The notes under the pieces are model-generated. The model saw nothing but the letters and a program-made list of their open reading frames with translations. It was not told where the DNA came from and searched no databases. From Promethearchaeota archaeon (GTDB lineage Archaea > Asgardarchaeota > Lokiarchaeia > Sigyniarchaeales > SOKP01), in the NCBI GenBank assembly GCA_016839745.1, contig JAEOTS010000115.1, positions 1 to 22,028 on the forward strand: 22,028 nucleotides of DNA. Direction: 5' to 3'. Both the position numbers and the translations under genes were made by a program. Below are positions 10,456-12,563 of this stretch, in pieces; the first letter of the stretch is position 1, and each line of letters opens with the position of its first letter.

Positions 10456-11856
10456 TTAAAAACGAGTTTCGTCGATTTTAGGCATATCAGGTGCTGATAA
10501 TGCTTTTTCAATTTCTTCGCGTGGCATCTCGTAATCTACTAAATTGCCCATCATGTGTTCTTTGTATGCTAATAAGTCGAAAAATCCGTGACCACTTAGG
10601 TTGAATACAATATTCTTCTTTTCTTTGTTTTCTTTAGCAGCTAAAGCTTGGTCAATTGCTTCTTTTATAGCGTGAGCTGCTTCAGGTGCTGGTAATATAC
10701 CCTCTGTTTTAGCAAACATTAATCCTGAGGAAATAACTTCAGTTTGATGGTGCATAACAGACGACATTATCTTCTTGCCTGATAAAATTGAAATTATCGG
10801 CGCCATTCCATGATAACGTAAACCTCCTGCGTGAATTGGGCTAGGAATGAAATTATGTCCCAAAGTGTGCATTTTTAAAATTGGAGCTTTTTTCGCCGAA
10901 TCTCCGTAATCCCATCTATAATCTCCTTTACAAACGCTTGGACAGGCTCTGGGTTCCACGCCTACGATCTCTAAATCAGGAAGTATTCCGTGTAATTTAT
11001 CTCTTGCGAAGGGAATCATAAAGCCTCCTAGGTTAGAACCGCCACCCATACATCCAATTAAAACATCGGGTTTAACTTCAATTTTATTAAGTTGAGCTTT
11101 AACTTCTTGCCCGATTATGGTTTGATGTAACAAGACAAAATTTACAACGCTACCCAATGAATATCTTGCTTTATCACTCCTCATACTATGCTCTACGGCC
11201 TCAGATATAGCAATTCCTAGACTTCCTGGGTGATCTGGATCGCTTTCATAGTAAAGTTTTCCAGAATCCGTAAGGTTTGAGGGACTTGCGTGAACTTGCG
11301 CATCATAAGCTCTCATTAATATTTTTCTTCCGGGTTTTTGCAAAAAACTAGCTCGTACCATATAAACCGTGCATTTTATATCGAATAAATTGCACCCGTA
11401 AGACAAAGCTGAACCCCATTGACCAGCGCCAGTTTCAGTGATCAATTCATTTACTCCATCTCTTTTAGAATAATAGGCTTGAGCCAAAGCTGTATTTGGT
11501 TTGTGTGAACCCGTTGGAGAAACTGATTCATTTTTATAAAATATTTTAATGTCATCTCCTGGTATTCCAAGTTCTTTTTCTAAACTCAAAGCTCTATGAA
11601 GAGGAGTGGGTCGGTAGGATCCTGCATAAATCTCCCTTAATTCGTTCGGAATGGGGATTAATGGTTCTTGAGAAACCTCTTGAAGCACACACTCTTTAGG
11701 GAATATAGCAAAAGCAAGTTCTGGAGGTGCGGGTTTTCCATCCATGGGGTTTATTAAGGGCGTCATAGGAGCAGGTAAATCTGGCACGATGTTAACCCAC
11801 TCCTTTGGAATTTCGTTTGGTTCTAATAAAATTCTTGTTTTATTAAAATCTATCAT
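10456..11856 (-). CDS. trpB2: Tryptophan synthase beta chain, TrpB2 type (stand-alone, PLP-dependent)
   Basis: SP.GSHKPNTA (PLP Lys), TETGAGQWGSAL, PGSLGIAISEA, GGGSN, HAGGLRYHG, NLSGHG; long TrpB2-type N-terminus; SD-like AGAGGT upstream. Confidence 0.95.
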   Translation of the reverse strand: MIDFNKTRILLEPNEIPKEWVNIVPDLPAPMTPLINPMDGKPAPPELAFAIFPKECVLQEVSQEPLIPIPNELREIYAGSYRPTPLHRALSLEKELGIPGDDIKIFYKNESVSPTGSHKPNTALAQAYYSKRDGVNELITETGAGQWGSALSYGCNLFDIKCTVYMVRASFLQKPGRKILMRAYDAQVHASPSNLTDSGKLYYESDPDHPGSLGIAISEAVEHSMRSDKARYSLGSVVNFVLLHQTIIGQEVKAQLNKIEVKPDVLIGCMGGGSNLGGFMIPFARDKLHGILPDLEIVGVEPRACPSVCKGDYRWDYGDSAKKAPILKMHTLGHNFIPSPIHAGGLRYHGMAPIISILSGKKIMSSVMHHQTEVISSGLMFAKTEGILPAPEAAHAIKEAIDQALAAKENKEKKNIVFNLSGHGFFDLLAYKEHMMGNLVDYEMPREEIEKALSAPDMPKIDETRF

Positions 11857-12100
11857 TTCTTATACCTCTGTTATTTTATATCATCATCTAATTTATATGA
11901 TGTCTCATCTTAAGATTGGAGCCCAATTATAATAATGCCCAATTGCAAACGCAATTGAAATTTTAAAATTCGATGTTTAGAAATAAAAAGAGCACAAAGT
12001 ATGGTTTATCCAATGAAAAGCGTTTTCAGGAACGCCAAGGCCACTGCCAACAAGAAAGATTAATTTTAGTAACCATAGAAATAAACCATGCTTTTATATA
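11857..12100 (-). promoter_or_regulatory. Putative structured trpB2 5' leader (attenuator-like)
   Basis: Leader ORF, alternative hairpins at 12020-12035 and 12014-12028, long-range helix 12081-12089 with 12001-12009, U-tract at 11979-11990, hairpin at 11940-11957. Confidence 0.6.
12026..12076 (-). CDS. Putative Trp-rich leader peptide MVTKINLSCWQWPWRS upstream of trpB2
   Basis: Minus strand ATG GTT ACT AAA ATT AAT CTT TCT TGT TGG CAG TGG CCT TGG CGT TCC TGA: three TGG codons within five, ending 169 nt before the trpB2 ATG on the same strand. Confidence 0.75.
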   Translation of the reverse strand: MVTKINLSCWQWPWRS

Positions 12101-12122
12101 GTGACATTATTAGTATCAAACA

Positions 12123-12130
12123 CTTATAAA
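12123..12130 (-). promoter_or_regulatory. Candidate TATA box for the trpB2 leader transcript
   Basis: Minus strand TTTATAAG, which would place transcription start near 12100, just upstream of the leader ORFs. The region is AT-rich, so this is uncertain. Confidence 0.35.
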
Positions 12131-12158
12131 GTTAATCCTCTAGATTGAAGGATGTCAG

Positions 12159-12563
12159 TTATTTTCTTTCAAATATGCTTGCTAAATTTTTAGCAGCAAC
12201 TCTCATAACTTTAACGGTCTTCATTAGAGTATCAATCAGTGTTCCCGCACAAACAATAACTAGACGCCCTGCGTTGCTTACGATAATGTAGCCATTCTCA
12301 GCCCTCACAATTATTTCACTTAAGTCTTCTTGAAAAAGAGTTTTAATTGTGGAGCTTCCCGTCATTAAAAGAGCACTCGCAAGACCACAAAACTGATCCC
12401 CATCAACTTGGTATTGAGGTAGCGCTGAAAAAGCGATTTGATAGCCTTCCATGCTCACAAGGGCAATAGCTTCTATATCCGCATTTGAAGTAATAAATGT
12501 AATTTGAGGGCTAATTTTTTCAATTTCTTCGGGGCCAATACCTAGATCCGTTCCGAATTCCAA
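12159..12563 (-). CDS. Roadblock/LC7 (MglB/LAMTOR-like) domain protein
   Basis: IEAIALVS.EG..IA, ...LASALL..G, L.EIIVRAENGYIIV pattern; TTG start with SD AGGTGA 7 nt upstream. Confidence 0.88.
   Translation of the reverse strand: MEFGTDLGIGPEEIEKISPQITFITSNADIEAIALVSMEGYQIAFSALPQYQVDGDQFCGLASALLMTGSSTIKTLFQEDLSEIIVRAENGYIIVSNAGRLVIVCAGTLIDTLMKTVKVMRVAAKNLASIFERK

Follow-up and report, generated by a model that had tools for sequence, protein, structure and literature searches.

The window analysed here, a stretch of 22,028 nucleotides from a Promethearchaeota archaeon, carries on its minus strand trpB2, whose product matches the NCBIfam TrpB-like family PRK12391 with 633 bits (cut-off 366). 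The spacer of 302 nt upstream of this gene is bordered on its far side by the gene for a Roadblock/LC7 protein (12563..12159), the upstream neighbour of the leader described below. Within this spacer the initial annotation had marked a 16-codon ORF with three TGG codons, located on the trpB2 strand in a GC-richer patch and ending 169 nt before trpB2, and translation and coordinates confirm each part of this description. Minus-strand translation of the window places the TGA stop of the leader at 12028-12026 and the Trp codons at 12049-12047, 12043-12041 and 12037-12035, and the 169-nt gap runs from this stop to the trpB2 ATG at 11856-11854. Three of the last seven sense codons are UGG, and the GC content of the Trp patch is 59%, against 30% for the spacer as a whole. 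No clear Shine-Dalgarno sequence is evident before the leader ORF, and no tRNA was detected in the window. The features of the locus are listed in Table 1.

Table 1. Features of the trpB2 leader region, from the promoter side towards the gene (positions in the window).
Feature	Position	Strand	Sequence or content	Remarks
TATA-like box	12124..12130	-	TTTATAA, preceded by ATTAAC	Predicted leader promoter; read from sequence
P1 5′ arm	12081..12089	-	AUGGUUUAU	Long-range closing helix; pairs with 12001-12009
Leader ORF	12026..12076	-	MVTKINLSCWQWPWRS	16 codons and TGA stop; translation
P2 5′ arm	12068..12074	-	GGUUACU	Start-codon G and codons 2-3; pairs with 12039-12045
Trp-codon cluster	12035..12049	-	UGG-CAG-UGG-CCU-UGG	Codons 10, 12 and 14; proposed stall site
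P2 3′ arm	12039..12045	-	AGUGGCC	Overlaps second Trp codon
P3 hairpin	12019..12036	-	GGCGUU / AACGCU, followed by UUUUCA	12036-12031 pairs with 12024-12019
CAU	12013..12015	-	CAU	Invariant; potential partner of the leader start codon at the junction
P1 3′ arm	12001..12009	-	AUAAACCAU	
U tract	11981..11989	-	UUUUUAUUU	Candidate attenuator termination site; read from sequence
Hairpin/palindrome	11940..11957	-	CAAUUGC-GUUU-GCAAUUG	Conserved; spacer
AUUG-N5-CAAU element	11915..11927	-	AUUGGGCUCCAAU	Found before trpB2 and trpD
Hairpin	11882..11902	-	CAUCAU-N9-AUGAUG	Just upstream of the trpB2 ribosome-binding site
Shine-Dalgarno-like sequence of trpB2	11864..11869	-	AGAGGU	Read from sequence
trpB2	10456..11856	-	466 aa	TrpB-like PLP enzyme; candidate regulated gene

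The source genome is 89% complete, and at this completeness trpA, trpC and trpE were undetected, as was a true trpD, the search returning just one sub-threshold trpD relative. trpB2 therefore stands alone as the only Trp-forming gene detected here, and from general knowledge of TrpB2 enzymes its product presumably makes Trp from salvaged indole. Genes 55-89% identical to trpB2 were also observed on contigs labelled WOR-3 bacterium, Deltaproteobacteria or Desulfobacterales (L116, L174, L175, L178); the contig carrying the 89%-identical copy is probably a mis-binned Promethearchaeota contig.

Since an ORF with at least three Trp codons arises in 0.5% of shuffles of the spacer, the leader is only moderately unlikely by chance when judged as a single sequence. 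For the motif TGGNNNTGGNNNTGG, 52 matches were counted in 7.06 Mb (3.5-Mb genome), nearly all of them in other reading frames of genes. Leader-like mini-ORFs with a WxW cluster number just 11 in the 429 kb of the whole genome that lie outside long ORFs, and in this portion the three-Trp mini-ORF is unique to the trpB2 leader. A genome-wide search for a second Trp leader gave chance-like WxW mini-ORFs only, and the WxW mini-ORF in C56 probably represents the beginning of a longer ORF. A crude scan of the source genome for mini-ORFs rich in other amino acids returned 46 noise-like matches; five of these were inspected, and the N-termini encoded downstream suggest, by eye, no role in amino-acid biosynthesis.

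To compare the leader between relatives, we used trpB2 orthologues with their flanks from 22 species of the same genus, together with a covariance model (R1) that was built from the element and run on 101 family genomes. All 22 genus species have, at the same position, a short ORF that contains two or more Trp codons, with an aligned start codon that is GTG in three of them and TTG in one. R1 matches were found in 73 of the 101 family genomes, mostly as one copy per genome and as a single copy in the source genome. One divergent copy of the element (L104:3265-3362, minus strand), which lies 344 nt upstream of the gene for a CxxCxxCC-domain protein (PF03692), not a Trp gene, encodes MKAINCLFSFWFFFWRF and is Phe-rich as well as Trp-rich. 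In each of the 58 distinct family elements (58/58), the frame that begins at the aligned start runs intact through the Trp codons, and the other two frames, +1 and +2, are open in 26/58 and 17/58 respectively. The start codon of these 58 elements is ATG in 54 and GTG in 3, with a TTG one base upstream in the remaining one. Family leaders comprise 15-24 codons with 2-6 Trp codons, their differences in length amount to whole codons in every case, and the last Trp is located 0-3 codons ahead of the stop in 52 of 59 leaders. Family members strongly conserve the sequence WQWPWR(S/F/W)-stop at the C-terminus. The expectation, formulated from the single sequence, that orthologous trpB2 genes are preceded by a conserved short ORF with Trp codons is thus strongly borne out in the 22 genus species and also in the phylum sample considered below, and as a matter of sequence comparison the evidence for a leader beyond chance is decisive.

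The leader ORF is enclosed by a predicted fold of three helices, and R1 matches the window at 11999-12091 with 92.8 bits. Since RNAalifold gave an empty consensus on the plain MAFFT alignment of 22 elements, the helices were proposed from single-sequence folds and then checked by pair counts in alignments. The MAFFT alignment of the 22 sequences has 82.8% of its cells paired, against 34-47% with slid partners, and ten pairs are changed on both sides. In the alignment of 58 sequences, which was fitted to the covariance model and hence leans towards it, 82.1% of cells are paired against 31-52% with slid partners, 76 cells carry double changes (19-40 with slid partners), and the covariation score reaches 0.223 compared with 0.02-0.09. 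For P1, pairing amounts to 79-82% and double changes affect 4-5 pairs, one pair appearing as GC in 27, AU in 17 and GU in 7 sequences; the corresponding figures are about 78% and 3-6 pairs for P2, and 91.7% and 3-4 pairs for P3. The proposed three-helix fold around the ORF is therefore supported by compensatory changes. The 5′ arm of P3 is formed by the last Trp, Arg and Ser codons and its loop by the stop codon, and a terminator scan of the window flagged this hairpin as terminator-like. The codons CAG, CCU and CGU are G+C-richer than a genome of 32% GC would be expected to favour, a choice that is explained by the pairing in P2 and P3, so that coding and structure constrain the same bases.

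The CAU at the junction can pair with the leader start codon, the three positions being U-A in 58/58 elements, G-C in 55 with 2 further G-U, and A-U in 40 with 3 further G-U. Because the CAU columns are invariant, this pairing is compatible only and covariation cannot prove it; if formed, it could bury the start codon at the junction. Constrained folds of seven diverse sequences, with either the Trp codons or the stop blocked, revealed no conserved alternative or antiterminator pairing, and P1 was kept whether the ribosome was absent, on the Trp codons or at the stop. Pairing of the P3 3′ arm with GCGUUU of the downstream hairpin or with the TGCGUUA motif of the spacer was dropped as not conserved by eye, as was pairing of the U tract with the trpB2 ribosome-binding region. 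The 5′ arm of P1 opens with a conserved AUG, giving a 7-codon mini-ORF, MVYFYGY (12089-12066, minus strand), that overlaps the leader start in a different frame and is kept in most of the genus, although its conservation may possibly stem only from the pairing in P1 and P2.

Away from trpB2, R1 matches are located 117-240 nt upstream of trpD in seven genomes from four genera, and these trpD genes score about 410 bits against TIGR01245 (cut-off 199). In genome G338, the operon behind the element has the order trpD-C-F-B-A-(unknown 238-aa ORF)-E-G, in which trpB belongs to TIGR00263; the ORF between trpA and trpE (L112:6500-7216, minus strand) has no NCBIfam match at E up to 1e-20. A small ORF without known family follows the leader in four further genomes, and the order in G070 is leader, 80-aa ORF, trpD-trpC-trpF and four ORFs sized as trpB, trpA, trpE and trpG. 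The 80-90 aa ORF between leader and trpD (L100:549-788, L101:548-802 and L083:1640-1909 on the plus strand, L102:2897-3145 on the minus strand), which occurs in one genus and in one genome of another, gave no Pfam or NCBIfam match, and in L100 it directly adjoins trpD. The presence of the element before the trp operon ties it to tryptophan and not to trpB2 alone. Moreover, the element travels with Trp genes, of two unrelated kinds, instead of staying with its upstream neighbour, which is the strongest argument for a tryptophan-specific regulator.

The Trp-codon leader extends across the Asgard archaea. A mini-ORF with a Trp cluster (WxW) within 400 nt upstream of trpB2 was detected on the sense strand at 18/22 genus loci and, by the same criterion, at 28/47 sampled non-genus Asgard trpB2 loci from many families, whereas the antisense control gave 0/22 and 0/47, and the background expectation is ~0.005 per 400-nt region. 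Only the Trp residues are common to distant lineages (WQWPW, WAW, WPW, WHW, WQWW, WRWW), which fits sensing at the codon level; the Trp ORF is retained in these lineages even though sequence and fold differ. A WPW leader is present, for example, at L048, a locus from a closed genome. Distant families repeatedly show a hairpin that covers the last Trp codon or the stop and leads into a U tract, as exemplified by a canonical stem with U6 in L025, a stem with a very long U run in L052, U9 in L067, and U6 directly before the trpB2 ribosome-binding site in L051, L070 and L056. The latter three loci and L057 have longer upstream ORFs of 45-60 codons that share an MGFALT start and end with 3-4 terminal Trp codons, the stop being located in a hairpin loop; the U6 tract lies just before the trpB2 ribosome-binding site, and a TATA-like sequence is present between leader and gene. 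In L055 and L058 the leader stop is followed by a hairpin of CCUCCUAAA with UUUAGGAGG (anti-SD-like/SD-like) and then AUG, an arrangement that hints at translational coupling in that lineage.

Some genera have lost the leader upstream of trpB2 (L032, L042, L036, L037, L034). In L032, the ORF and the P1 5′ arm are missing through a natural deletion, and what remains are the 3′ arms of P3 and P1, the U tract and the spacer; this deletion fits attenuation but proves nothing. In the genus of L036 and L037, the element precedes the trp operon instead of trpB2.

A bacterial sigma-70 promoter scan was set aside, as the host is an archaeon. The TATA-like box keeps a fixed distance, starting 36-44 nt upstream of the element at most of 57 family loci, in both trpB2 and trpD contexts, and is retained in relatives without a leader upstream of trpB2. 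That the box is kept in leader-less genera suggests it is the promoter driving trpB2. Within 70 nt downstream of the element, a T5+ run is present in 46/58 relatives versus an A5+ run in 10/58, and the base content of this downstream sequence in the 58 relatives is 48% T and 28% A. Archaeal RNA polymerase terminates at U tracts and does not need a hairpin. Of the ORFs of at least 150 aa in the source genome, 53% are followed by a T5+ run no more than 80 nt beyond the stop (median distance 21 nt), and no stable hairpins were found before these gene-end runs (mean MFE -1.9 versus -1.65 kcal/mol in shuffles); gene ends in this genome are of the plain U-tract type of archaeal terminator. The U tract downstream of the leader resembles these gene-end runs, so that the leader carries a normal-looking gene-end signal, although the lack of hairpins at ordinary gene ends weakens the reading as a simple bacterial-type terminator. 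Further downstream, the spacer elements at 11882-11957 are shared with the trpD versions (L107, L083, L100, L075), including a TGCnUUA motif. The AUUG-N5-CAAU element has its counterpart in L085 as GUUG...CAAC, and the stem sequence of the hairpin close to the ribosome-binding site varies between lineages. These conserved elements could represent a second promoter or operator, or part of an expression platform.

Taken together, we consider a cis-acting leader-peptide tryptophan sensor with ribosome-mediated attenuation to be the best explanation of the locus, and probably the correct one. That a translated Trp-codon sensor controls the downstream Trp gene is highly likely, and we give even chances to transcription termination at the U tract as its output. 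In the scheme that follows, we infer translation of the ORF, ribosome stalling, an end of transcription in the U tract and the sign of the response. The promoter, approximately 50 nt upstream of the mini-ORF, would initiate a transcript in which the 16-codon leader comes first among the reading frames. In the RNA, P1 would close the element, P2 would pair codons 1-3 with the Trp region, and P3 would join the last Trp, Arg and Ser codons to nucleotides beyond the stop. With ample charged tRNA-Trp, the first (pioneer) ribosome would finish the leader and depart, the RNA would fold with the start codon buried at the junction, and transcription would end at the U-rich tract 35-45 nt past the stop, leaving trpB2 off. 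When charged tRNA-Trp is scarce, the ribosome would stall on the UGG codons within codons 10-14, covering the 3′ arm of P2 together with the 5′ arm of P3; the stalled ribosome would hold the fold open or shield the nascent RNA, and RNA polymerase would pass the U tract into trpB2. This mechanism is weakened by the lack of a conserved antiterminator, the ordinary terminators without hairpins, the absence of an evident leader Shine-Dalgarno sequence and the conserved spacer elements, and these weak points leave room for a second promoter or operator, or for a post-transcriptional output.

The same Trp-codon stall sensor could accordingly act on mRNA stability, on processing or on initiation of trpB2 translation within a long transcript, or it could cooperate with a proximal promoter or operator located separately in the spacer. 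Such an output would account for the length of the spacer (115-300 nt) and for the elements common to its trpB2 and trpD versions (TGCnUUA, AUUG-N5-CAAU and the ribosome-binding-site hairpin), and it agrees with the failure to find an antiterminator and with the CCUCC / GGAGG hairpin directly after the leader stop in one lineage (L055, L058). However, a gene-end-like U-rich tract follows the leader in most lineages, the start-proximal hairpin excludes the trpB2 Shine-Dalgarno sequence, and the leader showed no consistent pairing with the ribosome-binding site, and we regard this alternative as rather unlikely. A different kind of sensing is known from TnaC, which detects free Trp via its nascent peptide and induces a catabolic operon. 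By analogy, the Trp-Pro-Trp-Arg C-terminus of the Asgard leader might arrest the ribosome near the stop in response to free tryptophan, and the high conservation in the family of the WQWPWR(S/F/W) sequence adjoining the stop codon would be expected on that basis. Yet P2 and P3 pairing also explains codon conservation within the family, other families keep Trp only, with varying number (2-6) and spacing to the stop, and arrest at high Trp would need a different logic to turn a biosynthetic gene off, all of which makes a TnaC-like device improbable.

It is likewise very doubtful that we are dealing with a structured RNA that is not translated (riboswitch, T-box-like tRNA sensor or TRAP-like protein site) and whose ORF is a by-product of conserved UGG repeats. 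The three-helix fold with its compensatory changes, the UGG triplets every 6 nt and the lack of an obvious leader Shine-Dalgarno sequence are features that such an RNA would share, but it would not be expected to keep the frame intact in 58/58 elements, to confine indels to whole codons and to retain a start as ATG, GTG or TTG, nor would the Trp ORF outlast the changes of sequence and fold in distant lineages. Rfam gave no match, T-box and Trp_leader included, the TRAP gene (PF02081) was not found in the source genome, and there are just 2-6 UGG triplets. Finally, the single sequence alone might be taken for an unrelated small gene or for an ORF formed by chance in the AT-rich spacer, given the shuffle frequency of about 0.5%, but all comparative results oppose this reading, and conservation before two kinds of Trp genes effectively refutes it, reducing its probability to a negligible level.

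Returning to the translated Trp-codon sensor, we tentatively propose, as a possibility rather than a favoured conclusion, that leader-ORF control in Asgard archaea is distinct from its bacterial counterparts, in that the stalled ribosome blocks termination at a plain U tract and no antiterminator hairpin is involved. On this tentative reading, termination at the U tract would be either intrinsic or aCPSF1/FttA-dependent, the whole ORF would lie inside a branched fold, and the device might be old within the phylum, serving the trp operon as well as trpB2 with its stand-alone salvage enzyme. Attenuation by leader peptides, the textbook case of regulation by coupled transcription and translation, is regarded as bacterial, and Asgard archaea are the closest known relatives of eukaryotes. 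The Asgard element would be direct physiological evidence that transcription-translation coupling is exploited, and as a short, defined cis-element it would serve the study of regulated U-tract termination in archaea. A Trp-auxotrophic Lokiarchaeon would still gauge the charging of tRNA-Trp to switch on an indole-salvage enzyme. The R1 covariance model, with its matches in 73/101 family genomes, is usable for annotation.

With regard to known systems, searches for Rfam RF00513 (Trp_leader) gave no match in the window at the gathering threshold, nor in 11800-12200 at E up to 10, and no match to the T-box (RF00230) was obtained in the window at the gathering threshold or in 11800-12200 under permissive settings. 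The TRAP-regulated trp leader of the Bacillus type combines a TRAP gene with 9-11 (G/U)AG repeats in the leader. The TRAP gene (PF02081) was not found in the 89% complete source genome, in a search whose control matched B. subtilis, and the Asgard leader holds three UGG triplets only, without a NAG repeat array. Similar to enterobacterial trpL, the element contains a short ORF whose Trp codons cluster towards the end, upstream of Trp genes on the same strand, with its own (here predicted) promoter, RNA helices that the ORF overlaps and a U-rich tract thereafter. It differs from trpL (RF00513) in that there is no match in sequence or structure, the Asgard ORF lies inside a three-way junction with no 2:3 versus 3:4 alternative found, a long conserved spacer precedes the gene, the Trp codons alternate (WxWxW) where those of trpL are in tandem, the candidate termination signal is of the archaeal type, and the host is an archaeon. 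The proposal that this is a TrpL-like sensor is supported insofar as the Trp-codon leader is conserved and linked to Trp genes, but the likeness to E. coli TrpL is functional only.

Bacterial systems also include cases in which the position of the leader ribosome decides downstream termination with no classical antiterminator, namely Rho-dependent attenuation at E. coli tnaC and occlusion at pyrBI. No Rho is known from archaea, and the analogy with tnaC and pyrBI would be possible if aCPSF1/FttA or simple occlusion were involved. Among archaea, TrpY of Methanothermobacter is a DNA-binding repressor that acts at promoters of trp genes; in both cases archaeal Trp biosynthesis genes are controlled, but by a DNA-binding protein in the one and putatively by a translated leader in the other. 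Trp-rich leader ORFs before trp operons have been found by comparative genomics in actinobacteria, including the trpB2A operon of Corynebacterium diphtheriae (Seliverstov et al. 2005, PMC1262725). Unlike the Asgard element, those leaders are bacterial and have predicted classical terminator/antiterminator hairpins (PMC1262725), and the 'trpB2' of C. diphtheriae is merely a second trpB copy in the operon. Polycysteine leaderless short ORFs of mycobacteria are reported to act as Cys-responsive attenuators (bioRxiv 10.1101/834739); they resemble the Asgard leaders in having a 5′ ORF rich in one amino acid, cognate downstream genes and a mode of action by ribosome stalling, which is proposed for the Asgard leaders, but are bacterial and sense a different amino acid. 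Some Asgard leader ATGs (as in L023) are located at about the expected transcript start, comparable to the leaderless ORFs of mycobacteria. A search of the full-text literature, with most subscription journals outside its coverage, found no paper on leader-peptide attenuation in archaea. In function, the enterobacterial trpL attenuator and the actinobacterial Trp leaders come closest to the Asgard element, which very probably serves as a gauge of tryptophan that is read by the ribosome, a type of device described to date from bacteria alone.
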